From NCBI GenBank assembly GCA_903842985.1, contig CAIMOB010000004.1, positions 1-43,872 of the forward strand: DNA of 43,872 nt. Direction: 5' to 3'. The notes under the pieces were generated by a model. That model saw nothing but the letters and a program-made list of their open reading frames with translations. It made no database searches and was not told where the DNA came from. Within the stretch, counting starts at the first letter, position 1. Each line of letters begins with the position of its first letter. Shown in pieces: positions 3,366 to 43,774 of the stretch. This stretch comes from an uncultured archaeon (GTDB taxonomy: Archaea; Nanobdellota; Nanobdellia; Woesearchaeales; CAIVOO01). Both the position numbers and the translations under genes were made by a program.

Positions 3366-3839
3366 TCACCCCAGTGTTGCAATCCAGTTCCCAATGTAAT
3401 ATGTTGCAACAATGACAATAATTGCAATCGCCAGATGCTCAAGAATTGCATATTGCGGCCTAATTCCCCTTTGCCTGGCGAGGTAATAGCTAAAAATCGT
3501 TATCAAAGACAAGCCCCAGATAATGCTTATAAGGATTGCTGTTGAAAGCGAGAATAGCAGTACAGGCACTATGAAAGTAAGCGCAAAAAAAAGCTTTGAG
3601 AAAAATGTCGCAGCAGTAGACTCCCATATCTTCTTGCGCGAGTTCTTCAGCCCCGTCTCTTCAGAAAGATGAATGCCAAGCGAGTCAGACAACGCATCTG
3701 CAACTGCAATCATCAGTATTCCGCCAATAACAACGATTTTTGAATGGGTGCTCGAGTCAAGCCCGACAATCATGCCGAGTGTTGTTATTATCCCTGACGC
3801 AAGCCCGAAGCCAAGCCCCTTCTTGAATGAAACCCTCAC
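3366..3839 (-). CDS. VIT1/CCC1-like membrane protein
   Basis: FGLASGIITTLG..G, IAVADALSDSLGIHLSEE; five TM segments; GTG start overlaps the stop of the upstream gene. Confidence 0.8.
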   Translation of the reverse strand: MRVSFKKGLGFGLASGIITTLGMIVGLDSSTHSKIVVIGGILMIAVADALSDSLGIHLSEETGLKNSRKKIWESTAATFFSKLFFALTFIVPVLLFSLSTAILISIIWGLSLITIFSYYLARQRGIRPQYAILEHLAIAIIVIVATYYIGNWIATLG

Positions 3840-5656
3840 AGTGCAACCTCAACATTCCTATTGAATATCAGCGCATCAAGCAGGAGCTTTCCCAGCTTGT
3901 TTGTTTTGCCGACTTTTATCTCGCCTTTTTTCCCGACATTCATTGTTACAAGATATTCGCCGGCAACATAAATATTCACGTTCTTGTTCACAAGATTAGG
4001 ATCAACTTTTATAATAACATAGTTTCCTGACTCGAATAGCTCAAACCTTACATTCTTCTTTGGCATTTCCTCTGCTGGCTTTTCTTCCATCTCCCTGATA
4101 TCAAGTCCTATGCCGAGCTTTTCCTCTATTTTTTCTATATTCTGACCGCCCTTTCCTATGATTGAGGCAATAAATTTCTCAGGAACATAGACAATTGCCT
4201 TGTTTTCAGAGGCAACCTCAACCCTGACATTGTCTGCATATTTCTGGAGCTCATTTCTTATTGTTTTTGCAGCCAGCTCCTTCAGCGGAGTTCCCTTTTC
4301 AGTCTCCTGTACAGGAACCACTACAGTTTCCTCGCCGTAGCTGTAGATTTCAAACTCAAGCTTCCCTGTCTCAAAGTCAGATACAACAACAATCGGCCTT
4401 GCAAGGTCCGCTTCTGTCATTCCGCTCGGCACCTTTACCATCATTGCTACATTGAAAACCTTTGCAACTCCGCCGTTCTTTATGAAAACCACAGTGTCAA
4501 CAACATGGGGAATCATCCCGAGCTCTATCCTCCCAAGGAATCTCTGGATTGCATCTATTGCCTTTGTTGCGTGCACAACCCCAACCATTCCTACGCCGGA
4601 CAGCCTCAGGTCAGCGAATAATTTGAAGTCATCTGTGTTTCTCATCTCATCAAAAATAGTGTAATCAGGCCTTGAAAGCAATAAAATGTCATGGATTTCC
4701 TGCGGTGTTCCGTGGGAAATTGCGTACTGTGTTATGCTGTCAGGCAGCACCAAATCCCTCGGCGCTTCAACTGTCTTCACTATCTTGTTTTTATTTGCGT
4801 AATGTTCTGCAAGCGCCTGCGCAAAAGTGCTCTTTCCCATTCCAGGCGCGCCTGCAATCAAAACACCCTCTGCCTGCTCCTCTATCCTCTTTGCAAGTTT
4901 TTCAGAAATCTTGTAATCATCAATCTGCAGTTTCTTGATTGGCTTTACAGCAGTTATCTCCCAGCCGTCTGAGAAAGGCGGCCTTGTTATCACAATCCTG
5001 TACAATCCAAGCTGGACAATTGTTGAGCCCGGCCTGTCAATCTCTATGAAGCTGTCCCTTCTCATGTTAGCTTCCTCAATTATCTCCTTTGACATCTCCT
5101 TTATTTCTTCCTGCGTCAGCTTCTTAGCTTCTTTTTTAATGAACTCCCAGTTGCCCGGCACTCCAACCTTGGCAAACGGCGGCATGTTTTCCCTTAAATG
5201 CGCGCTCATTGTCCTTGCGTCAAAGAACCTTTCTAGCATCAATTTTCTCGGCTTTATCTCCAGCTCTATGAGAATAAACTTTATTCCCTTTGCATCCGCG
5301 ACCTTTGCCTGTACCTTGTCAGCTGTTATCAGCACTGCATCGTTCTCAAAGGCAAGCTCCCTTATCAGCGAGTCAATCTCGCCCATTTTCGCGTATTTTA
5401 TCTCAGCAGGCCTAGGCCTGTTTCCGCTGAATGAGAGTTTGAAATCAAGCTTTTTGGAAATCTCCCTCAGCCTGCTTATCTCCTCAAGCCCGATTGAGCC
5501 GATTGACTTGTTCATGTTCGCCTGGTGCTCAAGCTCTGCGACAATCGCCTCATGGATTATTATCTCATCTGTGGCAAGCTCCTTTTTCTCGAGCTTCTTT
5601 GACACAATCCCTTCAATAATGACAGAAGTGTCCGGGACAAGTTTTTCTGTTTTCAT
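3836..5656 (-). CDS. PINc/VapC family P-loop ATPase with KH domain (PINA-type)
   Basis: N-terminal PIN (VPDTSVII...LITAD), Walker A GAPGMGKST, FDEMR, GVVHAT, C-terminal KH GxxG (IIGKGG). Confidence 0.92.
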   Translation of the reverse strand: MKTEKLVPDTSVIIEGIVSKKLEKKELATDEIIIHEAIVAELEHQANMNKSIGSIGLEEISRLREISKKLDFKLSFSGNRPRPAEIKYAKMGEIDSLIRELAFENDAVLITADKVQAKVADAKGIKFILIELEIKPRKLMLERFFDARTMSAHLRENMPPFAKVGVPGNWEFIKKEAKKLTQEEIKEMSKEIIEEANMRRDSFIEIDRPGSTIVQLGLYRIVITRPPFSDGWEITAVKPIKKLQIDDYKISEKLAKRIEEQAEGVLIAGAPGMGKSTFAQALAEHYANKNKIVKTVEAPRDLVLPDSITQYAISHGTPQEIHDILLLSRPDYTIFDEMRNTDDFKLFADLRLSGVGMVGVVHATKAIDAIQRFLGRIELGMIPHVVDTVVFIKNGGVAKVFNVAMMVKVPSGMTEADLARPIVVVSDFETGKLEFEIYSYGEETVVVPVQETEKGTPLKELAAKTIRNELQKYADNVRVEVASENKAIVYVPEKFIASIIGKGGQNIEKIEEKLGIGLDIREMEEKPAEEMPKKNVRFELFESGNYVIIKVDPNLVNKNVNIYVAGEYLVTMNVGKKGEIKVGKTNKLGKLLLDALIFNRNVEVAL

Positions 5657-6045
5657 GCTGCCATCCTTTGTTTCTTAAGCGCATAAATTGCCGCTTCACA
5701 AAAGTTATTGAATTTCTGTATAGATATTTTTATGTTGTCAATCATCTGATTTTTTATAATTGTGGCCTTCTCCACTTCGTAAGTTTCAACACTTGTCTGG
5801 ATGTACTCCAATTGCTTAATCTGCCCAGTCAATTGGCTTTTGATAGCTTTGTATTCTTCTTTTTTAATCTGGCCTGCAATCAGGGATTCAATCTTTTTGC
5901 AGTTTATTTCAAGAATCTTAAGAACATTGTTCATTTTTTCATAATCCCTCTCATTGGTTGTTATGCTAATCAAAAAACCGCGCATAATGTTCATTTTGCC
6001 TGTCTCCCCTTTCATTATATCTTCTACAACTTCCATTTTACTCAC
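5653..6045 (-). CDS. hypothetical helical protein
   Basis: 130-aa ORF overlapping both neighbours in operon style; GGGTGA SD upstream. Confidence 0.65.
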   Translation of the reverse strand: MSKMEVVEDIMKGETGKMNIMRGFLISITTNERDYEKMNNVLKILEINCKKIESLIAGQIKKEEYKAIKSQLTGQIKQLEYIQTSVETYEVEKATIIKNQMIDNIKISIQKFNNFCEAAIYALKKQRMAA

Positions 6046-6691
6046 CCTTCCCTATTAAATCCGCTGTGCATGCGCCCAGTATCGCTGTCAGCGTCACTGT
6101 TGCGACCTGCTTAAAGCTTAGTATGAATGAATTCCCGAATTCCGGATGGAAAAAGTAAAGCACCAGGATAGCCATTAAAATTGAGGTTATGTATAGGACA
6201 ATTAGCCTTATCGGAAGGAATGCAAGCACCTTGACATCCTTTATTTTCCTGAAGCCAGTTACATAAAGGAAAACAGCGCCGATTATGAATGAGAGCAGAT
6301 AAAGCACCGAAGCCCTTACCATGTCCAGTTTTTCAGCAACCTCAATTCCATAAAGAAATGTGTAATGCGCAACCGAGCCAAAGAAAGCGCCGACAGCGCC
6401 TCTTGCAATGTCCTTATATGTTATTTTTCTCAGGGGATGTGTTTCAGTCTGCTTCTCTATTTCCTTCTCAAGCCTTTCAAGCTTCTTAAGTTCAGAAAGC
6501 TCCTCTTCTGTTTCGCCTTCAACCTTTTTTTCTTCAGCCAGCTCCTCTCCTTCCTCTTCCAGAACATTCTTTTCTTCTCTTTCTACGTTCTTTTCCTCTT
6601 TCAGTATCTTTCTTTGGCCTGTCAGAATTACATCAAGCTTATTGTTAATATCACCTAGGCTTGGTTTTTTTCCTCTTTTTTTCTTAGCCAT
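6038..6691 (-). CDS. DUF2391-like membrane protein with N-terminal charged coiled coil
   Basis: E/K-rich coil followed by KDIARGAVGAFFG and four TM segments ending GACTADLIG. Start may alternatively be 6703. Confidence 0.6.
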   Translation of the reverse strand: MAKKKRGKKPSLGDINNKLDVILTGQRKILKEEKNVEREEKNVLEEEGEELAEEKKVEGETEEELSELKKLERLEKEIEKQTETHPLRKITYKDIARGAVGAFFGSVAHYTFLYGIEVAEKLDMVRASVLYLLSFIIGAVFLYVTGFRKIKDVKVLAFLPIRLIVLYITSILMAILVLYFFHPEFGNSFILSFKQVATVTLTAILGACTADLIGKGE

Positions 6692-6710
6692 ATATCCCTT
6701 CATATATTCT

Positions 6711-8690
6711 TTATTTAAAAACTTTGCTGATGCTTCTGCTTATTTTCCTGAAAAACATGCCTGTTTTCTGAAGCATATTAAGCCTGTTTAGATTAATTTC
6801 AAATTCAGCTGTTTGAGTGTACTCCCTGCTGTTTGAGTCAAAATACCTAACATTTATCTTGAAAATATTCTGCTTTGCATCAAGCTGGTTGCCGTTCATA
6901 TTCACAATAATCCGCTTGTCTGTCTCAATGTCGCTAAGGCTCCAGTGATTTTTTGAATCCTCAAAGACAAACTCAACATCTGCATTTTTGGGGAGGGAGG
7001 CAGATACTTTCTTTATTGAAAATGAAATATTAAAATCCCTGCCATAAGAGATATTTTTCGGGTAGTCTGGGTTTGCAATCTCTATCTTCGGTGTGTCAAG
7101 AACTTCAATCTGCACAGTCTTTCTCTTTAAGACATCTGTTCCAGATGCAGTGACATCAATCCTTATTGTACCTGTCTTATTAGTTTCAAGCGTGAAGTTT
7201 ATGTTTTTCTGCCTTGATATGCCCAGGTCAAATATCCCGCAGATATTCTCAAGGCACATGCTCAGATTCCTCATGAAGACATTCCCCTTGTTCTGCACTA
7301 TGCAGTCAATTGTCTTGTTCTCATAAACATAATAAGCGCTCTTTTCGGCGTAGCAGTCAATGAAGACATTCCTTGAATAGACTTTTGCAGTTTCTTCATT
7401 GAGACTTTTCAGGGTTGTTACCGCTTCCTCAAGCTTAATGGATTCAGCGTCAAAATTCGATTTGAAAGTCGCATTTGCAGACACTCCGCTGTCGCTGTAA
7501 ACAACAATGGGGAAGGTATATGCAAAGTCCCTGCTCAAATCATCTATCACACGCACCATCCAGAAGACGCTTTTCTTTTCATTTGGCTTCAGCACAATAG
7601 TCTTTTCAACTGCGTCGACATTCTCAATCTCATTTACTTTTGAAATCCCAACAGTTGTAGCAGCGTAATAATTTTCAAGGTTTTCAACAACAGCTTCTAT
7701 CGTATTGTAGGAGCCGAAGCTAACATCATCTTTTATCGGGCTCGCAGTTATTTTGATAAAATTCGCCTCCTTTGTGTAGTTGATGACTTCTGTCTTGAAC
7801 CTAAGCTTTTCAAAATCAACAGTAACATCCCTGCCGTACCACGCCAGCTGGGTTGACATCTCTTTTGCATCTTTGCTTATGCCTGCAACAATGTGCGTTG
7901 CATCGACATAGCCGAACTCGCCGTATGTTACGTCAAAAGGAACCCAGCCAGTGCCCGGAAAATAAACCTCTGCCCAGCCATGAGGCCCCCATTTCTCTGC
8001 AAATAGCTCAGAGTTTGTGTATGAAATGCCTGAGATGAATCTTGCCGGAATACCCAATGCGCGGTTTAATGCAATAAATAGGTTTGTAATTTCGTCGCAG
8101 ACGCCTTTCCTGTTGCTCAGCACCCAGGTTGCCTTCTGGCTTGCGCTTTCTGTCGCAGTTGTTATGTTGTATTCTATGTTGCTTTTCACCCACTCTGCAA
8201 GCTTTGTCTCCACAACAAACAAGTCGTCCTCGCCTTCAACAATCTGCGAAGCCAGCCCAATTATTCTTGGGTCGTCCGAATCAACCAATTCGCTTGGGCC
8301 CAGGAAGAACCCTGCGGGACCAGGGATAGCAGCTATTGGAAAGCTTGTCTTTTCTTTTATTTCTGCTCTCCTGCTGCTTGTCTTAACCACCGAATCAACC
8401 CTGTAATAATCAGTCATCTTTGGGTTTTTTATGTTGAAAATCAGGCGGTCGCCTACGGCTTCTGCATCCGGCGTTGTTGTTTGCTCAAGAACCTGCTGCT
8501 GCATCGTTTCCTTTGGGAAAAAACTTAGGTTGATGATTGCGTATTCAAGCGAGTAATCATCTTTCTGCGGAAGAATTGTCAGCGATGAGAATACCTCCTG
8601 CCTTGCAGTTATGCTGTCTGCGTAAGTAAAATCCTGAGCAGAAGCTAGCGGAAGCAACAGCAATAAAATCAACAGCGACGTTTTTTTCAT
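6711..8690 (-). CDS. secreted transglutaminase-like domain protein with Ig-like C-terminal region
   Basis: Signal peptide MKKTSLLILLLLLPLASA; intact Cys-His-Asp triad (GVCDEI, PHGWAE, PFDVT). Confidence 0.85.
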   Translation of the reverse strand: MKKTSLLILLLLLPLASAQDFTYADSITARQEVFSSLTILPQKDDYSLEYAIINLSFFPKETMQQQVLEQTTTPDAEAVGDRLIFNIKNPKMTDYYRVDSVVKTSSRRAEIKEKTSFPIAAIPGPAGFFLGPSELVDSDDPRIIGLASQIVEGEDDLFVVETKLAEWVKSNIEYNITTATESASQKATWVLSNRKGVCDEITNLFIALNRALGIPARFISGISYTNSELFAEKWGPHGWAEVYFPGTGWVPFDVTYGEFGYVDATHIVAGISKDAKEMSTQLAWYGRDVTVDFEKLRFKTEVINYTKEANFIKITASPIKDDVSFGSYNTIEAVVENLENYYAATTVGISKVNEIENVDAVEKTIVLKPNEKKSVFWMVRVIDDLSRDFAYTFPIVVYSDSGVSANATFKSNFDAESIKLEEAVTTLKSLNEETAKVYSRNVFIDCYAEKSAYYVYENKTIDCIVQNKGNVFMRNLSMCLENICGIFDLGISRQKNINFTLETNKTGTIRIDVTASGTDVLKRKTVQIEVLDTPKIEIANPDYPKNISYGRDFNISFSIKKVSASLPKNADVEFVFEDSKNHWSLSDIETDKRIIVNMNGNQLDAKQNIFKINVRYFDSNSREYTQTAEFEINLNRLNMLQKTGMFFRKISRSISKVFK

Positions 8691-18400: not shown

Positions 18401-18915
18401 GATTAGGAATTGAAAAGCAGGACGTGCTTGTCCTTATGAATGAGATAGAGACAAAGAAAAAAGACCTTTTCATGAAGACATTCGATGTCATCAACGAGAA
18501 TTTCAAGAACATATTCTCTGCACTGTCAACAAAAGGCGATGCAAACCTTGTTTTAGAGAACAAGGACCAGCCGTTCGATGGCGGATTAATGGTTAAAGTC
18601 AGGATAACAGGCAATAAGTTCCTTGACATAAGGTCATTGTCAGGCGGAGAGAAGACAATGACTGCCCTGGCATTCATATTTGCGATACAGGAGCATGAGC
18701 CAGCCTCATTCTATATCCTGGACGAGGTTGACGCTGCGCTTGACAAGAGGAACTCTGAGAAATTTGCAAAGCTGATAAGAAAATACTCGGAAAATGCGCA
18801 GTACATAATAATCTCTCACAACGACGCAATCATATCCGAGTCAGACTTGGTTTACGGCGTGTCAATGCCCAATGCAGAAGACGGAATAAGCAAGGTAGTC
18901 AACCTGAAGTTATAA
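15415..18915 (+). CDS. smc: chromosome segregation protein SMC
   Basis: GFKSF, Walker A GPNGSGKSN, long coiled coils, hinge (GIYGTVSELG...G.M.GG), LSGGEK, ILDEVDAALD. Confidence 0.98.
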   Translation: MTRINRLVMHGFKSFAKHTALPFGNSFNAVIGPNGSGKSNVLDALCFVLGRSSSKSLRAEKSANLIYNGGKAKTPSKEAEVSIFFDNSKKTFPIPEEEIKISRIVKGSGQSVYRINNKTRTRQQVLELLSLARIDPEGYNIILQGDIIRFVEMSPLERRGLVEEISGISIYEDKKQKAMNELSKVEEKLKEAEIILSERQERLKELKKDRDQAIKYKEIVERINKNKASLLNIQIKRKEDERKEFEQRIGKHREKLESLQSEISKLKNDMNEKKTNISDINKKIESSGETEQVKIHKEVEQIKVDLATSTSKLESFRNEIEKLKQRKEQLNKNIEDIDEKISRSKQEKSELEKSLSSTQKSLTDINRKIDDFKKKNNLDTTGIEKEIDSLDKDAEERQTEIQNLRQEQQELLRKKDRLELQLQSIDEKINKVLELEKENKEDIDMLKQMREDFKKATLELNKRLNDDSSLSAQLGEARKKAMKAREDLARLEARNIGIQETLLGDIAVKKVLDQKNKIKGIYGTVSELGEVSSKYSLALEIAAGNKIKGIVVEDDKTASECIKFLKNNKYGIASFFPLNKIKPKQISANAESFKNSEGAHGLAIDLIKFDKKFNNVFSYVFGDTLVVENIDTARAIGIGKVKMATIDGDMAELSGAMQGGYRQKRAGLGFRESEIESGLKQNEQIIADSESVIKALDKRKSENEKFVDRLRQEKATLEGEIIKIEKSLHLESGDIDVNKKLKQDLTKELKDAEKRTDSINLKVSDCNNLLAKLKIKKQEMRDKISQLRNPVLIAELNAFEEKRQEFSNKILQLTSDMKNADVQLTTMLLPDKENIIKIIKQHEKEDEHFRGKIKEINDGIKQKNDVLKDKEKEEKKFYEQFKDLFTNRQKIDDIIKKLENRLEVLNEDSKQVEIKMNNVSLENARVSTELDAFNKEFEQFRGIEIFSRKPEEELRKEIKSDESFMSRVGDSINLRALEIYESVEKEYSSLLEKKERLGIEKQDVLVLMNEIETKKKDLFMKTFDVINENFKNIFSALSTKGDANLVLENKDQPFDGGLMVKVRITGNKFLDIRSLSGGEKTMTALAFIFAIQEHEPASFYILDEVDAALDKRNSEKFAKLIRKYSENAQYIIISHNDAIISESDLVYGVSMPNAEDGISKVVNLKL

Positions 18916-20026
18916 TTCTTTCAAAATCCTGCGCTGTTTTTTCCCATGAATGCGCCTGCATTGATATTCTTGCGTTTGCCCCAAGCTTCTCCCTTAAATC
19001 AGGCTTGTCTAGAAGTTCCCTAAGTTCGTACTCAAGCGCATCAACGCTGTTTCTCGGGAAGAAATAGCCGTTGTATCCTTTCTTCACAAAATCAACGATT
19101 CTTCCGACAGGCGTTGCAAGCACAGGCAGGCCAACTGCCATCGCCTCCATCGTTGCAAGCGAGGTTGTCTCTGTCACGCTCGGCATCACAAAAATATCCA
19201 TTGCCTGCAGGTATTTCAGTACACTGTCAACAAATCCAGTTATAATCACATCAGGATGCTCCCTGAACAATTCTTCCTCTTCCCCGCCGCCAACTATAAG
19301 AAGCTTGGCTTTGTATTTTCCGCTGATTTTAACAAATGCCTCATACAATGTCTCGACATTCTTCTCCTTGCTTATCCTCCCGCAGTAGCCAACTACAAGC
19401 GTGCCAGGAGAAATGTGCACTGCCTTTTTCGCCTTTTCCCTGTCTTCGGCAGGCCTGAATTTGTTTGTGTCAATCCCAAGCATTACATCCCTCATCTCAT
19501 TTCGTATTCCAATTTCCTTCAGACTTTTCTTTGTATACTCAGAAGGCACTAGTAAAAAATCGCATTTTTTGTAAAGCCATTTTGTGGCATGTCTTACAAT
19601 AAATGAGACAATCTTCTTCAGCCAGGTGGATGAAACAATAACAGGAAACTGCTCCCAGCTCATCTGGTGCACAAATGAATAGACAGGCTTTCCAAGCCTT
19701 TTTGCATAAACAATCGAGGCAGCGCCGGCAAGCAGGACATCCTGCGCCACAACAACGTCTGCCTCTGCAACATATTTTTTTATCTGTTTCAGCACATTTC
19801 TTGAAAACCTGACAGAACTGTAGCCAGTGATATGAATTATTCTTGACAATGGCAGCTTAACAATCTTTATGTTATCTCTTTCAATCTCCCCGGCATTGCC
19901 CTTGAACGCAGGCGCGAGCACAGTAACCTGATGGCTCCTGGCCAATCTTGGTATAACCTCATCAAGAAACCTGACTACACCATCCTTCTTTGGGTGAAAT
20001 GTGTCAACTGCGATTAATATTTTCAT
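18899..20026 (-). CDS. GT4 family glycosyltransferase
   Basis: MKILIAVDTFHPKKDGV, GRISKEKN, ETTSLATMEAMA (EX7E); true start ATG 20026. Confidence 0.92.
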   Translation of the reverse strand: MKILIAVDTFHPKKDGVVRFLDEVIPRLARSHQVTVLAPAFKGNAGEIERDNIKIVKLPLSRIIHITGYSSVRFSRNVLKQIKKYVAEADVVVAQDVLLAGAASIVYAKRLGKPVYSFVHQMSWEQFPVIVSSTWLKKIVSFIVRHATKWLYKKCDFLLVPSEYTKKSLKEIGIRNEMRDVMLGIDTNKFRPAEDREKAKKAVHISPGTLVVGYCGRISKEKNVETLYEAFVKISGKYKAKLLIVGGGEEEELFREHPDVIITGFVDSVLKYLQAMDIFVMPSVTETTSLATMEAMAVGLPVLATPVGRIVDFVKKGYNGYFFPRNSVDALEYELRELLDKPDLREKLGANARISMQAHSWEKTAQDFERIITSG

Positions 20027-20037
20027 TTTAACGAACC

Positions 20038-20676
20038 TTATTTTTCCTTGCAAAAAACTTCTGCAAACCTGCACCTATTTTCAAGCCCTGCCTTCAAATT
20101 TTTTATGTAAATGCTCCAGATTATATAAAATATGTACTTGTGCTGGCTCTTAAACATTTTTATTGCAGAGACTTTCTTCTTCATTGTGCCTGAAATGTCA
20201 ACATAAAGCTTTGGAAGGTTCCTTTTCACAACGCTGATTGGGTTCCAGATGTCAAATGTGTAAACTTCTGTCCTGGCATTCTTAAGCGCCTCAAGAACAA
20301 TGCTGTGGACAGCCTGATGGTCCGGATGCGGGTCGCTTGCAGAGTGCGTGAAAACCTTTTCAGGCATGTGCGTCTTCACCATCTTCTGAATCAAATCCTT
20401 TATCTTTTTCTTTCTGATGTCCTCTATGAAATTGCCTTCCTTCAGCCCGAGAAAAATATCCCTTTTGCATCCCAGAATCCGGTGCGCGCTCTTTGCCTCC
20501 TTCACCCTCATCTCTGTGCTGAACTCCCTCTTCATCAGCGGATGCGCTCGCTCGCCATAGGAGAAAACTACAACAATGACTTCATAGTTTTTTTCAGCGT
20601 ACTTCGCCATTGTCCCGCCTGCGCCAAGCACATCATCATCAGGATGCGCGCAGAAGACAATTATTGATTTTTTCAT
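20038..20676 (-). CDS. PIG-L/LmbE family N-acetylglucosaminyl deacetylase
   Basis: AHPDDD..GAGGT, R..EA, HPDH, FKSQ motifs. Confidence 0.9.
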   Translation of the reverse strand: MKKSIIVFCAHPDDDVLGAGGTMAKYAEKNYEVIVVVFSYGERAHPLMKREFSTEMRVKEAKSAHRILGCKRDIFLGLKEGNFIEDIRKKKIKDLIQKMVKTHMPEKVFTHSASDPHPDHQAVHSIVLEALKNARTEVYTFDIWNPISVVKRNLPKLYVDISGTMKKKVSAIKMFKSQHKYIFYIIWSIYIKNLKAGLENRCRFAEVFCKEK

Positions 20677-20848: not shown

Positions 20849-21880
20849 TTATAAATCTTCTTGTAATATCTCAATAAACCTCTTGAAACCCTCTGCCTTG
20901 AGTATTATAGCTGAAGACTGCGGATGCCCCCCTCCAAACCCTTCAACCTCTTTAAGTGTTTTTTCAACAACTTTCCTTAGGTCAACAATATGCGACCTTA
21001 ATGAGCATTTCATTTCATCCCCTTTTTTCCTTGCAATCACAATTGTCCATTCCGGATGCCTGTAAAATACTGCATTTGCAATTTCGCTTGACAGGCTTGT
21101 CGTCTTTTCAGTGTATTCAAAGACATAAAGATTGCCATTTGCCTTTACTTTCAGCGCCTCCTTAAGCAGCTCTTCATACTCCCTGCTTATTTTCAGGCAT
21201 CTCTTGCAGATTAATTTTCCCCTTTCAGTTGTCTGATTCAGGATTTCATACGGGCTTTCAATTCTTGTCAGAATTTTTATCGCTTTTTTAACATCCTCGC
21301 TCCCGCCCTTTAGATTAAAGCCTAAAATCGATATCAGCTTGGTAAGCCCAGACTCAAACTGCATCTTGTTCCTGTCTTTTATCTTTGGGTTGAGTATGTC
21401 AGGGTACTCCTTTGCAAAATCCTTTACAAAATCAGCATTTCCGCCGTCGCCAAGCGTGCCTATTGTCCCCAGCCACAGGTCTTTCTTGACAGCTTCGTAG
21501 CATATCTGCGAAGCAGGGATATAGGAGTCCTTGTCCTTGATTTTCGGATTGAAATATTTTACATTCTTTATCTCGTACGGACCGTGATGGTCTATCCAAA
21601 TCACAGGAAGCTTGACTTCATCAACAAATTCCTGGTCAAGCTGCGCAACATCAAGGATAAAAATCTTGTCTGGGTCATAGTCTTTTACAAATCTGACGAA
21701 TTCCTTTGTTATGCGCGGATTTGTCTTCACAATATGCCCCTTGCCCCTCTGTATGTGCCTGTAGAGCAGGAGGAATGAGCACAATCCGTCAACATCATCG
21801 TGAAAGAAAAACAGAGGTCTTTCTGAGCTTTCCAATTCTTCCTTTATCTCATTCAGTTCTTTCTCGCTAAGCAACTTCAA
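20849..21880 (-). CDS. DHH/DHHA1 family phosphoesterase (RecJ/NrnA-like)
   Basis: HDDVDG, ILD, WIDHH, SLRS, GGGHP motifs; TTG start. Confidence 0.9.
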   Translation of the reverse strand: MKLLSEKELNEIKEELESSERPLFFFHDDVDGLCSFLLLYRHIQRGKGHIVKTNPRITKEFVRFVKDYDPDKIFILDVAQLDQEFVDEVKLPVIWIDHHGPYEIKNVKYFNPKIKDKDSYIPASQICYEAVKKDLWLGTIGTLGDGGNADFVKDFAKEYPDILNPKIKDRNKMQFESGLTKLISILGFNLKGGSEDVKKAIKILTRIESPYEILNQTTERGKLICKRCLKISREYEELLKEALKVKANGNLYVFEYTEKTTSLSSEIANAVFYRHPEWTIVIARKKGDEMKCSLRSHIVDLRKVVEKTLKEVEGFGGGHPQSSAIILKAEGFKRFIEILQEDL

Positions 21881-22454
21881 TCACCTTTGCTTTCCTGACG
21901 CATTCCTCAACCATGTTCTTAATGTTTGCCTTTTCCTCTTCCTTCTCAACTGCCTCAAGCCTTGCCTTTGTCGCAACGCTCTTTGGAAGCCAGCAGCATT
22001 CATGCGCCTCTTTTATTGAAATCGCATATGTCCCGAATTTTTTTGCAAGTGTTACAGTTTCTTCCTTATCCCTTGTCAGTAATGGCCTTAATATCTTAAT
22101 TTTAACTGCCTTGTCCTCAACAAACATGTTGTCCAGTGTCTGCGATGCAACCTGCCCAAGATTTTCTCCTGTAACAATGAATCCGCATTTCTCTTTTTCA
22201 GCGATTTTTTCCGCAACCCTCAGCATAAGCCTCTTGCAGTAGAGGCAGGTATATTTTTTCTCTGAATTTCCAAATCCGCTTAAGTCATGCGGGACAAAGA
22301 ATATTTTTTTAATTCCAATATTCATTGCAAGCTTCTTTACTTTTTCGCTTTCCTCTCCAAAATGAACTCCAACAAGCTCCACTCCCTTGTCTGCCAGCAG
22401 CCTGCCTGCAACAGGGCTGTCTATTCCTCCTGAGATAAGCAAAATAGCTTTCAT
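21867..22454 (-). CDS. ThiI-type PP-loop sulfurtransferase, catalytic domain only
   Basis: LISGGIDSPVA, CLYCKR, TGENLGQVASQT, RPL; no N-terminal THUMP domain. Confidence 0.85.
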   Translation of the reverse strand: MKAILLISGGIDSPVAGRLLADKGVELVGVHFGEESEKVKKLAMNIGIKKIFFVPHDLSGFGNSEKKYTCLYCKRLMLRVAEKIAEKEKCGFIVTGENLGQVASQTLDNMFVEDKAVKIKILRPLLTRDKEETVTLAKKFGTYAISIKEAHECCWLPKSVATKARLEAVEKEEEKANIKNMVEECVRKAKVIEVA

Positions 22455-22512
22455 TTGCCCACTAAAACAGGGCTTATTTTTAAGCTTATTTATGACTACT
22501 TTGGAATGACAT

Positions 22513-22532
22513 CAAACCAAAAGGTTTATATA
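22513..22532 (+). promoter_or_regulatory. BRE/TATA promoter of the lytic transglycosylase gene
   Basis: CAAACCAAAAGGTTTATATA; TATA starts 30 nt before ATG 22555. The first 18 bp are identical to 32557-32574. Confidence 0.75.
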
Positions 22533-22554
22533 TGAGTTATTCAGCATTTCATAT

Positions 22555-23826
22555 ATGCAAATACGAAAAGTATACGGAAGGGGGCCGAAAAGAAACAGCT
22601 TTTGGCAGTGCTTTGGATTGACAGGCATTTCAGTGCCTCTGGCATTTTTTTCCTATTATTCATTTGCAGACACACCTTCCATTGACAAAAAGTGGGACAA
22701 TGTTTCCAGCTCAATTGATTATTACACTGATAACTTCAAGAGCAATTTGGCTGCAGTAAGCAGAGCATTAGGCATAAGCATAGACTCAATCGATTCAAAT
22801 ATTGTTTCAGTGGAAGCTGAGCCTAAAAATGTGATTTCTGTTTCATCCATTGCATCAGACATCGGAAAGAACATATCCACTCTTGTTAAGGATGTCGTGA
22901 AAACAGTGCAGCCACCTGCAAGGGTAGCTTTGCCTGGTCCGGTCAAAATACTTCCCTACATTCCTCCTGAAATAACCATCAAGCCCGCGCCAAGGCCAGA
23001 CCTTGAGTATCTCTATCTTGACAGCAAGCTTGAAAAAGCAATCCAGAAAAAAATAAAATATTACACTGGCTGCGAGGTCCATAAAAAACACACCTACTGC
23101 AGGATGACTGGCTATTCATTTCTTGCGAGCGAATCAACAAGGTTCGATGACTTCATCCTTGAGGGGCTGGCGAAAACAAAGTATGTCAAAGACGGCCTTA
23201 TCAGGTCAATCGGGTCAAATGAATCGTTGTTCAAGCTGAATGCAGTTTCAGGCAAGGGCGCAGAAGGCCCTATGCAATGCATGCCAGAAACTTCAAAAGG
23301 CTTGGGCGTCATGGTAACCCGCCATTTCACAGACAGCATGTTCCCTTCAATATTCATAGAAAGCGCGAAGCATCTCGATAGGATGGCTGAAAAATTCGGA
23401 GGAAACATCATGCTCGCGCTCGTCGGCTACAACTGGCGCGAGGATAAGGCGCAGAAGCTTTATGAAAGATTTGGGAATGATGCAAAATACCATGAGATTT
23501 ATGATAAAATACCTGCTGAGACGCGAGATTACCTGAGGGATGTTCTTTCGCTTCAGAGAGTATATGAGAATCGCGATAAATATGGGCTTGCCGTAAACAA
23601 AAGGCAGCTGTTTTCAAGCATGATAGATTTTGTTTACATTGTCAGAGACGGCGAGCACCTGAGGCGGATAGCAAGGGACTTTGACAGGCCCTATTCGAAT
23701 GTCCGTGATCTCAATCCGCAGATAAGGGACCCTGAATCTATTGTGCCTGGAATGAAAATCTACATGCCGAAGAGAGGCATAACCTCTGATTTGGGCTATC
23801 TTTACGCAGCTCTTCCTGGAAAATAA
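22555..23826 (+). CDS. lytic transglycosylase (SLT/GH23, MltD-like) with C-terminal LysM domain
   Basis: N-terminal hydrophobic anchor; catalytic NES, AVSGKGAEGPMQCMPET, LVGYNW, PAETRDY; LysM YIVRDGEHLRRIA...LNPQIRDPESIVPGMKIYMP. Confidence 0.88.
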   Translation: MQIRKVYGRGPKRNSFWQCFGLTGISVPLAFFSYYSFADTPSIDKKWDNVSSSIDYYTDNFKSNLAAVSRALGISIDSIDSNIVSVEAEPKNVISVSSIASDIGKNISTLVKDVVKTVQPPARVALPGPVKILPYIPPEITIKPAPRPDLEYLYLDSKLEKAIQKKIKYYTGCEVHKKHTYCRMTGYSFLASESTRFDDFILEGLAKTKYVKDGLIRSIGSNESLFKLNAVSGKGAEGPMQCMPETSKGLGVMVTRHFTDSMFPSIFIESAKHLDRMAEKFGGNIMLALVGYNWREDKAQKLYERFGNDAKYHEIYDKIPAETRDYLRDVLSLQRVYENRDKYGLAVNKRQLFSSMIDFVYIVRDGEHLRRIARDFDRPYSNVRDLNPQIRDPESIVPGMKIYMPKRGITSDLGYLYAALPGK

Positions 23827-23880
23827 TCCCACTGGACATCCCTTCACAAACCTTATATATTTTTCTGACTTATTATTTTT

Positions 23881-25110
23881 ATGCACGCCGGAAAAAACTG
23901 CCTAAAATGCAAAGGAAGGCTTCAGTGCGGAGCTTCGTTCTGCCCGATAATAGCAAAGGCAGCTGCAAGAGTAAGAGTTGTGGATGCGCTCGAAAAGCCT
24001 GAGTTCTCAGGCGAAGCCCCTACTGTTTTTGTCGGGCGCGTTGGCTACCCTTTTGTGAATGTCGGGCTGATGTCAACGCAGGCAGAGGATTCTGCGATTT
24101 ATGACGCGCCTCGTACATGGTCAGCTGAGAACTACGAGATTCCCAGGATAATTGACCTTCGTTCCGGCTTGATTAACTCGCGCTTCCAGTCAAATGTCAG
24201 GGAGAAAAGCAAATTCCTTGAGCTTTCTCAGGAAGTTGCAATGGCTTCAAAGCCTGCAGATGTTGACATAACACTGAAAGACAAGCCGAAAGTAAAGATT
24301 TCATTCAAAAGCAACGAAGCTCCCATGGGTCCCTCTGCAAAACTTGTGAAAGCTGAATTGACTGAAAATCCCAAGATTGACAAGAAAGTTGACTATGTTG
24401 TTTCTGACTATGACTTCAAGGCAACTGACGCGCTCGCTTATCTTCAGGAAAAGGGCTTTGAAGAGAATTTCCTTTCAAGATTATTGAGCATCGGGAATCT
24501 TGGGGTGAAGGCGCAGAGGAAATTAGTGCCGACACGCTGGAGCATAACAGCAACAGATGACATGCTTGCAAAGAATCTCATGGCAGAGATAAAAGATTTC
24601 CCTGCAATTAACGACCACATTGCTTTCTTCGGGAATTACCTTGGAAATTTTTATCTGGTCCTGATGTTCCCCGAAATCTGGTCCTATGAACTGTTTGAGA
24701 CATACATGCCAAAGACAAGCTGGAATACAGAGGATAAGATAAACTTCATGACAGACAATGAAGGCTATGAAGGAAGGAAAGATTACGCAGAGAACTGCTC
24801 CGGCGGATATTATTCTGTCAGATTGGCAATTCTTGAGAAGCTGAAGCAGATAAAAAGGCAGGCGTCTGTCCTGGCTCTTCGTTTCATTACAGATGATTAT
24901 TATCTGCCTTTGGGCGTCTGGGTTACCCGCGAGGCAACAAGAAAAGCACTGATGAGCAAGCCAATTGCCTTTGATTCAAAGGAGAGGATGCTTCACTACG
25001 CCAAACTGCTTGCGCAGAAGCGCTGGAGCTATGACGCAGAAAACCTTTTAAAGGAAAGCAGGCTGCTGAAGGAGATGAAACAGCAGTCAAAACTGAGCAG
25101 GTTCGCATGA
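23881..25110 (+). CDS. nreA: Nre family DNA repair protein
   Basis: CLKCKG...CG...CP, VFVGRVGYP, RKLVPTRWSITATD, GGYYSVR, PLGVW; C-terminal PIP box QSKLSRF. Confidence 0.92.
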   Translation: MHAGKNCLKCKGRLQCGASFCPIIAKAAARVRVVDALEKPEFSGEAPTVFVGRVGYPFVNVGLMSTQAEDSAIYDAPRTWSAENYEIPRIIDLRSGLINSRFQSNVREKSKFLELSQEVAMASKPADVDITLKDKPKVKISFKSNEAPMGPSAKLVKAELTENPKIDKKVDYVVSDYDFKATDALAYLQEKGFEENFLSRLLSIGNLGVKAQRKLVPTRWSITATDDMLAKNLMAEIKDFPAINDHIAFFGNYLGNFYLVLMFPEIWSYELFETYMPKTSWNTEDKINFMTDNEGYEGRKDYAENCSGGYYSVRLAILEKLKQIKRQASVLALRFITDDYYLPLGVWVTREATRKALMSKPIAFDSKERMLHYAKLLAQKRWSYDAENLLKESRLLKEMKQQSKLSRFA

Positions 25111-41961: not shown

Positions 41962-43033
41962 CAGTGGTCAACCCAGAGGTGACTACTTTTTCTTTGTTTT
42001 GTAGTCACCCAGTTTTTTCTTCAGTTCCTTATATTCTTTAATATAAAGCCTTACTGTTGGCTTTAAATCATGGTTTTTCTCATAAAACTGCAATGATTCA
42101 TAATACTCTGCCCTGTTTTTGAAATCTATGTTTATTGGCGGCAAGCTGTGTTTGATGAGTATGTTATTTAATAGTATTCTTCCAACCCTCCCATTCCCGT
42201 CCCTGAATGGATGAATATTCTCAAATTGGTTATGGACAACCGCCCCAAGAATCAGCCCCGGATATTTGTTTTTGTTATTGCTGTACCACTCAACCAATTC
42301 GCGCAGAAGATGGCTTATTCTCGCCTGCGGCGCGCCTTCATGGACAACATTTCCTCTGCTGTCCATTACAACAACTTCTTCGCCTTTTTTCCTAAGTTTC
42401 CCGGCGAATGGCTTGGAATTCTTGAATATGATTTTATGTATTTTTTTAATAAGCTCCAATGAAATATGCTCTTTTATGATTCGGGTATGTGAAATTGCCT
42501 CATCCACCCCAAATGCCTCGGCAATGTCCTCCTTTGATTTGTTTGGCCATTTGTCTTTTTCCAGCAGATCCTTGACCTCTTCCTGGCTTAGTTTGCTTCC
42601 TTCTATTGCGTTGGTATTGTAAGTGAATATTTTTGAGAATTCCTTCCAATCCCCTTCTGACAAATGGCTTATTTTTAGCGGTATCTGGGCTTCAAGTTTC
42701 TTTATTAAATTTATTTCCTCCTTTGAAAGCTCTACTTTGAGCGGGTCTTTTATTATTTTGTACCTGTGTATCTCCTCCAGGATGAGCTTTTCAGCTATTT
42801 TTTTTCTTTCGTTCAGCTTTGTTAAGTCATGGCCCAGGTATTTCCTGAATTTGTGGACTTTCGTGCCTTCCCTATATGAATATGCGAGGTAATATTTTAT
42901 TCCCTTCCCGGACTTTCTTTTTTCTATATGCATACTAATGTTATAGGTGACTACATATTTAAACTTTTTGGTTTTGGGTGACTACATTTGGGTTGGTTTG
43001 TAGTCACACTATCTTCTGGCAGTGGTCAACCCA
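41962..43033. repeat. repeat-bounded Fic unit: 14-bp direct repeat and GTGACTAC-N14-GTAGTCAC sites
   Basis: CAGTGGTCAACCCA at 41962-41975 and 43020-43033; IR sites at 41978-42009 and 42977-43007; extra half-site GGTGACTACAT at 42946-42956. Confidence 0.85.
41983..42933 (-). CDS. Fic family protein with N-terminal putative DNA-binding domain
   Basis: Canonical HPFRDGNGRVGR; internal inhibitory motif TNAIEGS; N-terminal YYLAYSYREG.KV...KYLG. Confidence 0.93.
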   Translation of the reverse strand: MHIEKRKSGKGIKYYLAYSYREGTKVHKFRKYLGHDLTKLNERKKIAEKLILEEIHRYKIIKDPLKVELSKEEINLIKKLEAQIPLKISHLSEGDWKEFSKIFTYNTNAIEGSKLSQEEVKDLLEKDKWPNKSKEDIAEAFGVDEAISHTRIIKEHISLELIKKIHKIIFKNSKPFAGKLRKKGEEVVVMDSRGNVVHEGAPQARISHLLRELVEWYSNNKNKYPGLILGAVVHNQFENIHPFRDGNGRVGRILLNNILIKHSLPPINIDFKNRAEYYESLQFYEKNHDLKPTVRLYIKEYKELKKKLGDYKTKKK

Positions 43034-43663
43034 TTTGCAGAAGCCGCAGTCTTCTGAAGGTTTTGGCATTGGATTTTTTAGAATTTGAATTGCTTCCCTG
43101 AAGATATTTTCCGCGTTCTTTATATTGACTGGCATCTTGATTAAGTCTGTGTGGAAGACAACATCTCCGCTCTTATTGACTTTTTCCGGATGGTAGAATA
43201 AGAGGTAGCTGTAATCCTCTGTTTCGTAGCTGTTTTTTCTTAATAAGAAGTTGTAGATGTCCAGCTGGTCCCTGTAATGCTCTGTTGTGTCTTCCTTCAC
43301 TGGGAAGCCCCGGGTTTTGAAGTCCAATACTATTAGCTTGTTTCCCTTTTTTAACAAGCAGTCAACTGCTCCTCTGAAGAGGTTTCCAGCTTCATCTGTC
43401 CAGGGGATGCCTTTGAAGTTGTTCCTCCAGATATCTAATAGTTCTTTGTTATTGAATAGGGTTACGCCTTTCAATTCCTTCAGCACTGGCGGAAGCTTTT
43501 CTCCGAATGAGTCAAAATATGCTTTAAGTATCTTGTCCATGCCAGATGGCAAGGAGGGGAAGATTGAGTCTGGGCGCTTGATATTCTTATTGAATTGTAG
43601 CCAGAAGCAGCGCGGGCAGTCTTTCAGCAAGCTTAAAGATGATGGGCTGAATTTGTGTGGCAT
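43004..43663 (-). CDS. PD-(D/E)XK nuclease, Cas4/RecB-like with 4-Cys Fe-S staple
   Basis: SPSSL..CPRC, GAVD, LDFKT, QLDIY, CGFCKWVDHC; true start ATG 43663. Confidence 0.88.
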   Translation of the reverse strand: MPHKFSPSSLSLLKDCPRCFWLQFNKNIKRPDSIFPSLPSGMDKILKAYFDSFGEKLPPVLKELKGVTLFNNKELLDIWRNNFKGIPWTDEAGNLFRGAVDCLLKKGNKLIVLDFKTRGFPVKEDTTEHYRDQLDIYNFLLRKNSYETEDYSYLLFYHPEKVNKSGDVVFHTDLIKMPVNIKNAENIFREAIQILKNPMPKPSEDCGFCKWVDHCQKIV

Positions 43664-43774
43664 TTCTTGTATAAAAATCATAGTATTTATAAGTATTATG
43701 CCCGTAGCTGTACTGTGGGAGTGGTGCACAAAATCAAAATCTTTATATATTGGTGTATATTTACTGTATATACA

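Follow-up and report, generated by a model that had tools for sequence, protein, structure and literature searches.

Earlier work has already described murein transglycosylases from Woesearchaeota and Pacearchaeota and proposed that such archaea have bacterial hosts or prey (PMC8204110, PMC9723730). The proteins described there, fam00969 of Castelle et al. 2021 (PMC8204110) and the GH23 enzymes of Vigneron et al. 2022 (PMC9723730), share with the protein analysed here the catalytic domain, the organism group and the proposed role. Those papers stress large proteins of up to 3,000 aa, whereas ours has 423 aa and combines an MltD-type core with a LysM domain, a domain that goes unmentioned in the main text of both. 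Modular peptidoglycan hydrolases have been surveyed more broadly and occur in 175 of 3,706 archaeal genomes, prominently in Nanoarchaeota (PMC12352652). In that 2025 PLoS Biol study the pairing of a catalytic and a wall-binding domain in an archaeon is as seen here, and SLT and LysM are both on its domain list (S10 Table); its detailed work (section 6) concerns zoocin-A-like M23 peptidases of Halobacteriales, whereas our protein is a lytic transglycosylase, and no archaeal row combining SLT and LysM was found in those of its supplementary files that were searched. A study of Woesearchaeota ecotypes (PMC11606122) mentions none of the terms transglycosylase, peptidoglycan, murein or LysM.

Among bacterial enzymes the closest described system is MltD (family 1D, GH23), represented by the PaMltD structures 8RHE, 8RHI and 8RHF and by E. 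coli MltD (b0211). A helical insertion that widens the active-site cleft is given as the hallmark of family 1D (PMC11327851).

Results

Gene and domain architecture

The window, that is, the whole stretch of DNA analysed, is 43,872 nucleotides long. The gene within it starts with an ATG at 22555 and ends with a stop codon at 23826, and comprises the following features.

22555..23826, + strand: MltD-like lytic transglycosylase coding sequence, 423 aa, stop codon included (ORF list, Pfam SLT and LysM, P0001)
22600..22668, + strand: hydrophobic segment, predicted Sec-type signal peptide or signal anchor, residues about 16-38 (Kyte-Doolittle, charge count, AlphaFold2)
22669..22908, + strand: helical 'stalk' of low confidence, residues 39-118 (AlphaFold2, alignments A1 and A2)
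22909..22998, + strand: Pro-rich linker, residues 119-148 (Pro count)
23002..23589, + strand: catalytic module with a lysozyme-like family-1 lytic transglycosylase fold, residues about 150-345 (AlphaFold2, Foldseek, VIA-align, hhalign)
23170-23481, + strand: Pfam SLT core, within the catalytic module
23221..23223, + strand: codon of Glu223, predicted catalytic acid, in the motif G-S-N-E-S (family conservation; alignment to PaMltD, Slt and E. coli MltD)
23635..23769, + strand: single C-terminal LysM module, residues 361-405 (Pfam, own-genome scan)

A database protein, P0001, is 100% identical to the product. The Pfam SLT profile (PF01464) scored 43.9 bits over residues 206-309, where the cut-off is 21.3 (E 2e-11; positions 7-111 of the 117 in the profile), and the LysM profile (PF01476) matched residues 361-405 with 24.5 bits against a cut-off of 20.9 (E 2.5e-5, positions 1-43 of 43). 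In the genome-wide scan the corresponding scores were 47.1 and 27.1 bits, and this LysM was the only one matched in the organism's own genome. With both domains above the Pfam cut-offs, as the proposed HMM scan was to establish, and with MltD the best match by sequence, profile and structure, the SLT and LysM identity put forward in the original prediction held, and the assignment of the protein to the family-1 lytic transglycosylases, with an attached LysM module, is supported.

The motifs on which that prediction was based (NES, G.MQ.MP.T, YN and ETRDY) are all present in the translation, as N222-E223-S224, G238-P-M-Q-C-M-P-E-T246, Y292-N293 and E322-T-R-D-Y326. In an alignment of the 36 family members E223 was unchanged in all 36, and S224, Q241, T246, Y292, E322 and T323 were each at least 90% conserved. 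The E223-S224 pair aligns with the E-S of PaMltD and PaSlt, and E223 with E125 of E. coli MltD; Glu223 is predicted from these alignments to be the catalytic acid. Within the LysM module N387 is invariant in the family and P388 at least 90% conserved. At residue 295 the query has Arg, whereas the family and the bacterial enzymes, MltD included, have the Gly of Y-N-x-G.

Likeness to bacterial MltD

The AlphaFold2 model had a mean pLDDT of 82.5, exceeding 90 over residues ∼130-410. Among solved structures the closest in sequence was PaMltD (8rhe, E 1.4e-7), and the top Foldseek matches to the model were likewise PaMltD (8rhe, 8rhi and 8rhf, E about 2e-9), compared with E 3e-5 for Slt. For VIA-align, 996 chains were aligned, 89 of which gave Z >= 8. 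PaMltD aligned with Z 19.5 and an rmsd of 3.8 A over 249 residues, model residues 140-411 lying on chain residues 67-332, while other families scored lower (MltF, Z 14.8; Slt70 and MltC, both Z 13.3; goose-type lysozymes, Z 10.5-10.6). The top 43 structural entries listed were all lytic transglycosylases, followed by goose-type lysozymes. By hhalign, the family profile matched E. coli MltD (b0211) with a probability of 99.7% and E 1.5e-25 over 235 columns, and the alignment includes both the E-T-R/K-x-Y helix that follows the core and the LysM.

The superposed span, 140-411, would take in the catalytic module and LysM1 of PaMltD. The model aligns with 249 of the 276 PaMltD chain residues, an overall length at which a lost 1D insertion would have little space. 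Of the lytic transglycosylase subfamilies, MltD / family 1D is the closest, and the alignment extends from the catalytic module through LysM1. The module order, catalytic domain then LysM, is the same in both. The differences from MltD are nonetheless considerable: identity is only 18-27%, PaMltD has four LysM domains and the query one (PMC11327851), the lipobox anchor of MltD is replaced by a signal or anchor helix followed by a stalk and linker of ∼110 residues, and the hosts of MltD are bacteria whereas that of the query is an archaeon in which no murein genes were found. The protein is MltD-like rather than an MltD equivalog, scoring 30.2 bits (E 1.4e-7) with the NCBIfam model NF008050 against a cut-off of 508 bits.

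A predicted exported protein with a long N-terminal extension

Residues 1-15 contain five Lys/Arg and no Asp/Glu, and are followed at residues ∼16-38 by the only hydrophobic stretch of the protein, with a best 19-residue Kyte-Doolittle mean of 1.25, at residue 19. Residues 12-37 were modelled as a helix. The N-terminal membrane anchor that had been predicted is borne out as far as the hydrophobic segment goes; with a Kyte-Doolittle maximum of only 1.25 the segment may equally be a cleaved signal peptide, the two being indistinguishable at this value. A possible signal-peptidase site, S-F-A then Asp, read by eye from the sequence, closes the segment. Inspection of residues 1-40 gave no L-x-x-C, the lipobox pattern of a lipoprotein anchor. 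The hydrophobic segment is a family trait (36 of 36 members, with a Kyte-Doolittle value of at least 1.2 in 29), and five of the 36 carry an RRxFL-like twin-arginine motif.

The stalk was modelled with pLDDT 38-73, with helices at residues 50-71 and 96-117, and in alignments A1 and A2 it is common only to the query and its closest homologue, P0002. The linker is Pro-rich as described in the original prediction, with 10 Pro in its 30 residues, and pLDDT passes 90 only beyond it. Stalk and linker together place ∼110 residues between the hydrophobic helix and the catalytic module.

Subfamily and distribution

P0002 (67% identity) was the sole match of a word-index search, and the wider family was recruited beyond it by an exhaustive protein search. 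A pattern search with alignment A3 gave 30 matches, none of them a relative. In the ESM Atlas the SLT(+LysM) clusters retrieved, at 0.92-0.93, were all bacterial; they had 162-167 features in common, short of the 170 mark, and so are a lead only.

The query matched the A2 SLT+LysM subfamily profile over positions 5-320 of 322 with 297 bits, a score that is partly built in, since A2 includes the query among its rows. It covers all the A2 features: the N-terminal hydrophobic segment, a conserved pre-catalytic helix, the SLT core, the E-T-R-x-Y helix, an L-F-S motif and one LysM. With the catalytic-domain profile it scored 180 bits, compared with 96 bits for the best named bacterial ORF. The labelled A2 members are archaeal, namely the top five genome-contig loci (5 of 5), P0008 (Nanoarchaeota / DPANN) and P0071 (Aenigmatarchaeota), and homologues were already annotated as SLT-domain proteins.

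In the tree, same-architecture relatives grouped with archaeal sequences, away from the named bacterial ones sampled. The half that holds the query has 89 rows with no named bacteria, and the other half holds all 55 named bacteria. On the DPANN-specific clade for which phylogeny had been proposed as a test, the tree splits the query's half from these 55 but is no proof that the clade is restricted to DPANN: SH-aLRT support for the dividing branch is only 84%, and 75 of the 89 rows are unlabelled, one of them on a 2.9-Mb contig and possibly bacterial. A long branch (1.06) bears the query and P0002, and altered specificity is possible because of it.

Occurrence of the narrow family is patchy, with matches at E <= 1e-30 in 21 of the 401 genomes sampled from the phylum, and SLT domains occur in 64 of 101 sampled genomes of the same order. 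Two further SLT proteins of the organism's own genome, on C40 and C39, resemble the query in passing the Pfam SLT cut-off (60.7 and 51.6 bits) and in having N-terminal hydrophobic segments, but they lack LysM, and the catalytic-domain profile of the query's family gives them only 54 and 47 bits, against 180 for the query. One of them, at least 665 aa long, contains multiple hydrophobic helices and, in its middle, a large region with no Pfam match.

Source of the substrate and proposed function

No match to Mur_ligase_M or Transpeptidase, and thus no murein or pseudomurein synthesis gene of these types, was found in the organism's own genome (878,927 bases, 92.65% complete). The substrate must therefore be foreign, and on the same result remodelling of the cell's own wall was rejected as a role. 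Searches of this genome also found no M23, Amidase_2 or CNNM/TlyC-type wall-degrading or pore-forming genes.

From sequence and model, the most likely function would be the extracellular cutting of bacterial peptidoglycan, the bacterium being presumably a host or prey. We consider it probable that the protein is an exported, MltD-built enzyme acting in this way outside the cell, on a bacterial partner or prey. The Sec system would put the protein outside, where it would either stay tethered by its N-terminal helix or be freed by cleavage, and the stalk and linker could extend the enzyme past the archaeal surface layer. LysM would grip a GlcNAc-containing glycan strand, and Glu223 would protonate the MurNAc-(beta-1,4)-GlcNAc bond, with the C6 hydroxyl of MurNAc closing the 1,6-anhydro ring. 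The peptidoglycan strands of a neighbouring bacterium would be cut in this way, and the purpose may be a local opening of its wall for attachment, access or killing of the partner or prey.

The enzyme could instead serve nutrition, digesting free peptidoglycan debris in the sediment for amino sugars and peptides. With so small a genome much must be imported, and the runs that contain this DNA are labelled as freshwater sediment metagenomes, a setting where cell-wall debris is plentiful. Lytic transglycosylases free soluble anhydro-muropeptides. However, neither AnmK nor a NagB-type glucosamine-6-phosphate isomerase/deaminase was found, a weak argument in a genome 92.65% complete, nor was an Amidase_2 or M23 peptidase that would free the peptides. 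The wall-scavenging variant of the original prediction is weakened accordingly, and we regard it as unlikely.

To a like degree improbable is action on some other GlcNAc polymer. Candidates would include chitin, chito-oligosaccharides and glycans belonging to an archaeal host or to the archaeon's own envelope, and the protein would then either bind the polymer or act in the manner of a chitinase. Chitin is among the ligands of LysM (PMC12352652), PaMltD holds chitotetraose in its cleft (PMC11327851), and all the cultured DPANN archaea named in PMC8204110 have archaeal hosts. The match of goose-type lysozymes to the model, Arg295 in place of the family Gly and the long branch point the same way. 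Against this, whether by sequence, profile or structure, every best match is a murein lytic transglycosylase, and MltD leads the others by ∼5 Z units; the single-Glu E-S motif is of the lytic transglycosylase type, and no Mur-ligase gene for a wall of the cell's own was found. The chemistry of lytic transglycosylases uses the C6-OH of MurNAc, whereas pseudomurein has beta-1,3 links to N-acetyltalosaminuronic acid.

Genomic context

The surroundings of the gene bear on a further reading, and on whether the gene belongs to this organism.

21867..22454, - strand: divergent neighbour encoding a ThiI-type PP-loop sulfurtransferase domain protein, 195 aa (Pfam ThiI, E 9.2e-48; NCBIfam)
22526-22533, + strand: TATA-like promoter box TTTATATA, starting 29 nt before the ATG (sequence read, genome-wide peak)
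23852-23859, + strand: TATA-like box of nreA (sequence)
23881..25110, + strand: downstream neighbour nreA (Pfam Nre_N, E 3.5e-82; Nre_C, E 2.8e-31)

Both flanking genes are as originally described. A functional tie of the enzyme to nreA or thiI was considered and rejected, as nothing beyond adjacency was found to suggest one and the enzyme gene and nreA have TATA boxes of their own.

Quite unlikely is that the protein is a secreted antibacterial weapon, its signal peptide cleaved, that diffuses away with no stable cell-cell association. The putative signal-peptidase site would allow this, but the outer membrane of intact Gram-negative cells protects their wall, so that lysis by a lytic transglycosylase acting on its own is rare. 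The Pfam matches around the SLT gene include no toxin or immunity partner beside it, and the same gene neighbourhood recurs in several families of the order, a pattern that suits a housekeeping role in the lifestyle better than a mobile cassette of weapons. In favour of this reading, modular hydrolases of archaea are proposed to be anti-bacterial weapons whose patchy occurrence is a sign of arms races (PMC12352652), and the narrow family is likewise patchy. This reading overlaps with the one we prefer, the cutting of a bacterial partner's or prey's wall, and ecology is the sole difference.

Of 795 genes, 202 have a TATA-like hexamer that starts at -32 to -27, whereas only 43 have one in the control interval from -52 to -47, and the genome-wide peak lies at -31 to -28. 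The archaeal TATA box claimed for the gene, at -29, falls on this peak, and the mRNA is therefore predicted to be leaderless or near-leaderless. The synonymous-codon score ranks 91 of 487 and differs from the genome mean by less than 1 SD, and the GC content is 0.442, compared with 0.42 ± 0.032 for the genome. Contig pieces with 100% identity from four runs, all of one study and possibly of the source sample, bridge both gene junctions, a result that bears on the coverage over the flanks that had been called for; these runs were represented by low-depth contigs, so that gaps in their cover are uninformative.

An SLT-domain gene adjoins nreA at seven of the 41 archaeal loci examined. These seven represent six distinct places (G018, G146, G131, G113, G109 and G037) in five families of the order, and the order SLT-LysM then nreA recurs in named archaeal records. 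Between the G018 and G146 orthologues dN/dS is 0.26, and this pair is under purifying selection. Position of the TATA box, codon use, GC, bridging contigs and conserved nreA adjacency support the gene as native to a small-genome, DPANN-type, Woesearchaeota-like archaeon, and agree with the earlier argument against bacterial contamination.

SLT and LysM are typically bacterial, and in control genomes both match only in bacteria, but a bacterial gene misjoined to archaeal DNA by assembly or binning can be dismissed for practical purposes in the face of the archaeal-type TATA box at the genome's canonical distance, genome-typical codon use and GC, the perfect bridging pieces of four runs (from one study, possibly the source sample) and the SLT-LysM-nreA gene order, which named archaeal records and further genomes of the taxonomic order share; a chimeric contig is rejected by codon use, bridging contigs and synteny.

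More speculatively, the ancestor of the order may have gained an MltD-type enzyme once, which was then inherited vertically beside nreA over a very long time, diverging fast and often being lost, and which breaches the walls of bacterial rather than archaeal hosts or prey, the stalk giving reach through the cell's own surface layer. We hold this fuller account to be doubtful, if conceivable.

Discussion

The novelty that the original prediction attached to this gene was overstated. The identical interpretation is in print (PMC8204110, PMC9723730), archaeal hydrolases have been surveyed (PMC12352652), and homologues carry SLT annotations. What we describe is not a discovery: it is a well-supported new example that fits the published idea of archaea attaching to or attacking bacteria. 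The new details are modest, and consist of a conserved association with nreA, a subfamily of archaeal sequences that is small and lies apart from the bacterial ones sampled, and the long stalk-like N-terminus.

Enzymes that cut walls and are specific for murein are the main genomic hint that some DPANN lineages have bacterial partners or prey. The gene is a native, intact and clean example of these, and leaves the published picture unchanged. It is also a convenient test object, with a confidently modelled soluble domain of ∼270 residues, E223Q as an obvious control, and a solved bacterial counterpart that comes with an inhibitor, bulgecin A. The linkage to nreA provides a simple marker for tracing the history of the gene in the order.

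Domain organization and N-terminus

The transglycosylase gene lies between two genes assigned with Pfam:

21867-22454 (-), ThiI-type gene
22555-23826 (+), the transglycosylase, 423 aa
23881-25110 (+), nreA (Nre_N, E = 3.5e-82; Nre_C, E = 2.8e-31)

These neighbours are the ones named in the original prediction, and the domain scan agreed with its reading of the protein. Both SLT (PF01464, residues 206-309, E = 2e-11, 43.9 bits against a cut-off of 21.3) and LysM (PF01476, residues 361-405, E = 2.5e-5, 24.5 bits against 20.9) exceed the Pfam cut-offs, and all of the predicted SLT motifs are found in the translation: N-E-S at 222-224, G-P-M-Q-C-M-P-E-T at 238-246, Y-N at 292-293 and E-T-R-D-Y at 322-326. 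The top NCBIfam match, the MltD equivalog, is far below threshold (30.2 bits against 508). The proposed Pro-rich linker is present: 10 of the 30 residues from 119 to 148 are Pro. Residues 1-15 contain five Lys/Arg and no acidic residue, and the single hydrophobic stretch (approximately residues 16-38) is only moderate (Kyte-Doolittle 19-residue maximum 1.25). Thus, a hydrophobic segment exists where a membrane anchor had been proposed, but at this strength it may act either as an anchor or as a signal peptide that is cleaved off.

Other genes in the window were also noted. About 2 kb from the transglycosylase gene, a GT4 glycosyltransferase gene overlaps that for a PIG-L family de-N-acetylase of the GlcNAc-PI de-N-acetylase type (18899-20676, -), possibly a pair for surface-glycan or lipid-glycan synthesis. 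A 605-aa protein (3836-5656, -) joins a PIN domain, a T2SSE-type secretion ATPase domain and KH domains. A 659-aa protein (6711-8690, -) has a transglutaminase-like core and no further Pfam domain, and the ORF next to it, at 6038-6703, has a match to DUF2391, a family of membrane proteins. Near the contig end, a Fic/DOC family protein adjoins a PD-(D/E)XK nuclease family protein (41983-42933, -, and 43004-43729, -).

Similarity to MltD and family conservation

The AlphaFold2 model has a mean pLDDT of 82.5, above 90 for approximately residues 130-410 and low for 1-118. The best six Foldseek chains were all Pseudomonas aeruginosa MltD (PaMltD; E = 2e-9 to 7e-9), and Slt came next at 3e-5. VIA-align superposed model residues 140-411 on MltD chain residues 67-332 (Z = 19.5, rmsd 3.8 Å, 249 residues), a span that would include the catalytic module and LysM1; the runners-up were MltF (Z = 14.8) and Slt70 and MltC (Z = 13.3). 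The SLT+LysM family profile matched Escherichia coli MltD over 235 columns (probability 99.7%, E = 1.5e-25). BLASTP paired E223 with E125 of E. coli MltD (27% identity over 126 residues), and by arithmetic on the construct numbering the aligned PaMltD residue would be Glu144. Given these homologue, model, fold and profile matches, the identification as MltD-like is secure. The protein is nevertheless not an MltD equivalog: it carries a single LysM against four in PaMltD, lacks a lipobox and has ∼110 residues of stalk and linker.

The only close homologue in a word-index protein search was P0002 (67% identity), which alone shares this stalk and linker. An exhaustive search gave 5962 proteins with E ≤ 1e-3, of which 122 reached E ≤ 1e-10 and five E ≤ 1e-30. 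The family alignment, A2, comprises 36 single-stretch matches of 267-469 aa. All share an N-terminal hydrophobic segment (at 1.2 or more in 29 of the 36), a conserved helix ahead of the SLT core, the core itself, an E-T-R-x-Y helix, an L-F-S motif and one C-terminal LysM; an RRxFL-like motif occurs in five. E223, A236, G238, N293 and N387 are invariant, and S224, S232, Q241, T246, P264, Y292, P320, E322, T323, L352 and P388 are at least 90% conserved. Position 295 is Arg here and Gly in at least 90% of members.

Evidence for a native archaeal gene

The genome has 60 contigs totalling 878,927 bases, with a completeness of 92.65% and a contamination of 1.64%; contig C4 is the entire window. Upstream of crude ORF calls, TATA-like hexamers show a sharp genome-wide peak at -31 to -28 relative to the start codon. 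Of 795 ORFs, 202 carry a hexamer that starts between -32 and -27, compared with 43 for the control interval -52 to -47. This is the pattern expected of archaeal promoters with leaderless mRNAs, and the peak suggests that most mRNAs in the organism are leaderless. The predicted archaeal TATA box of the transglycosylase gene, TTTATATA, begins at -29 (22526-22533), on this peak, as does that of nreA (-29, 23852-23859). The gene's synonymous codons score -1.084 (rank 91 of 487), the genome mean being -1.041 (SD 0.056), and its GC of 0.442 compares with 0.42 ± 0.032. Read coverage over the flanks had been proposed as a check, and contigs from four runs, all of one study, span both junctions at 100% match (e.g. 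22312-22565 and 23719-23966). These runs bear the label freshwater sediment metagenome and may stem from the source sample.

The strongest evidence that the gene is the archaeon's own is synteny. An SLT-domain gene directly adjoins nreA at 7 of 41 archaeal loci of the same order, representing six distinct places (genomes G018, G146, G131, G113, G109 and G037) in five families. NreA at these loci is 44-52% identical to the window copy, and the SLT protein, where detectable, merely 28-34%. The same gene order occurs in three named records, one titled Candidatus Woesearchaeota archaeon and two uncultured Methanosarcinales archaeon, with a DHH gene upstream in two; these were kept out of the six places, as they may overlap with genomes counted there. 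The conserved placement next to nreA points to long-standing vertical inheritance within the order. Between the G018 and G146 orthologues, dN/dS is 0.26 over 329 codons.

Together, TATA position, codon use, GC, bridged junctions and nreA synteny uphold the original view that this is not a contaminating bacterial fragment. As far as the promoter, composition, bridging contigs and synteny can show, the contig is not chimeric.

Distribution and phylogeny

SLT domains are common in the order, being found in 64 of 101 sampled genomes (47 of 77 high-quality ones). Of 201 genomes from the order, 65 matched the A2 profile at E ≤ 1e-10, only five of these, including this one, having full-length matches above 290 bits, and the narrow SLT+LysM family at E ≤ 1e-30 was found in 21 of 401 genomes sampled from the phylum. 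The narrow family is thus rarer than SLT domains generally in the order. Its labelled members are archaeal, among them P0008 (annotated SLT domain-containing protein, Nanoarchaeota / DPANN group archaeon) and P0071 (Candidatus Aenigmatarchaeota).

The genome itself has three SLT-domain genes, LysM being present in the transglycosylase alone. In L001 (contig C40, 1324-3321, -, at least 665 aa), several hydrophobic helices lie at the N-terminus, a middle region of ∼400 residues matches no Pfam family, and the SLT domain (60.7 bits) is at the C-terminus, its Glu being followed by Asp and not by the Ser of the transglycosylase; directly downstream is a lipoprotein-like ORF of 332 aa with no Pfam match. 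L002 (contig C39, 3-1169, -, running past the contig end, at least 389 aa) has a hydrophobic helix at the N-terminus, an SLT domain (51.6 bits) spanning residues 219-353, and no LysM.

A scan of one genome per species gave 140 pattern matches, 104 confirmed and 80 kept, its bacterial sample being biased by reliance on a single peptide pattern. The best five of the 80 (E = 0 to 1e-43) cover core and LysM and all have archaeal titles; the other 75 have bacterial titles, with E from 1e-11 on and mostly core coverage only. On a catalytic-domain profile, five named archaeal ORFs scored 216-225 bits, the transglycosylase 180, the best of 76 bacterial ORFs 96 and other SLT proteins of the order 26-129, the archaeal-bacterial gap being partly by construction as the profile was made from the family itself.

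The tree used 166 rows from 228 sequences with a match, keeping those that covered profile positions 25 to 135 and removing identical rows; the genome's two SLT paralogues and, as duplicates, the five named archaeal loci were left out. One midpoint half holds all 55 named bacteria, 8 archaeal and 14 unlabelled rows, and the other the transglycosylase, 13 archaeal and 75 unlabelled rows. The latter half contains no named bacterium. This falls short of establishing the DPANN-specific clade for which phylogeny had been proposed as a test: SH-aLRT support for the branch between halves is only 84%, and the unlabelled rows include a 20-row subgroup of longer proteins, one on a 2.9-Mb contig, that may be bacterial MltD-like. 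The nreA-linked SLT proteins of G037, G113 and G109 (loci L012, L035 and L041) lie on long branches spread over both halves, so the tree understates the orthology seen in synteny; fast evolution of a syntenic orthologue would explain their placement. The small SLT+LysM subfamily appears set apart from the bacterial sequences sampled.

Substrate and likely role

Neither Mur_ligase_M nor Transpeptidase was found in a scan of the genome (92.65% complete); as controls, both families were matched in bacteria, and Mur ligase also in two archaea. It is thus unlikely that the archaeon builds a murein- or pseudomurein-type wall itself, and the enzyme would be expected to act on a foreign substrate.

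The original inference of a bacterial wall as target and a bacterial host or prey is reasonable, and has been published previously. Earlier sightings, by Rinke in 2013 and Castelle in 2015, are reportedly among those that Castelle et al. cite. Castelle et al. (PMC8204110) propose that bacterial walls are bound and degraded and that hosts are bacterial, Vigneron et al. 2022 (PMC9723730) describe a 'vampiristic' lifestyle and five woesearchaeotal genomes that encode GH23 enzymes, and PMC10936187 gives such enzymes in three further genomes. PMC12352652 reports modular peptidoglycan hydrolases in 175 of 3706 archaeal genomes, prominent in Nanoarchaeota, with M23-type hydrolases chosen for detailed study. 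The literature search found no description of the small MltD-type subfamily or its nreA linkage, though subscription journals and supplements may hold one. The new, small additions are the conserved nreA placement, the apparent separation of the SLT+LysM subfamily from the sampled bacterial sequences and the long stalk-like N-terminal region in this copy.

Extracellular cleavage of bacterial peptidoglycan is the activity indicated by the conserved catalytic Glu, the MltD-type cleft and LysM, and the export signals seen throughout the family. Wall scavenging, also suggested originally, is weakly disfavoured as a feeding role, as is a larger lytic toolkit, since no AnmK, NagB-type, M23, Amidase_2 or CNNM (TlyC-type) genes were found in the genome. 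The most economical reading is that the enzyme would locally open the wall of a partner or prey.
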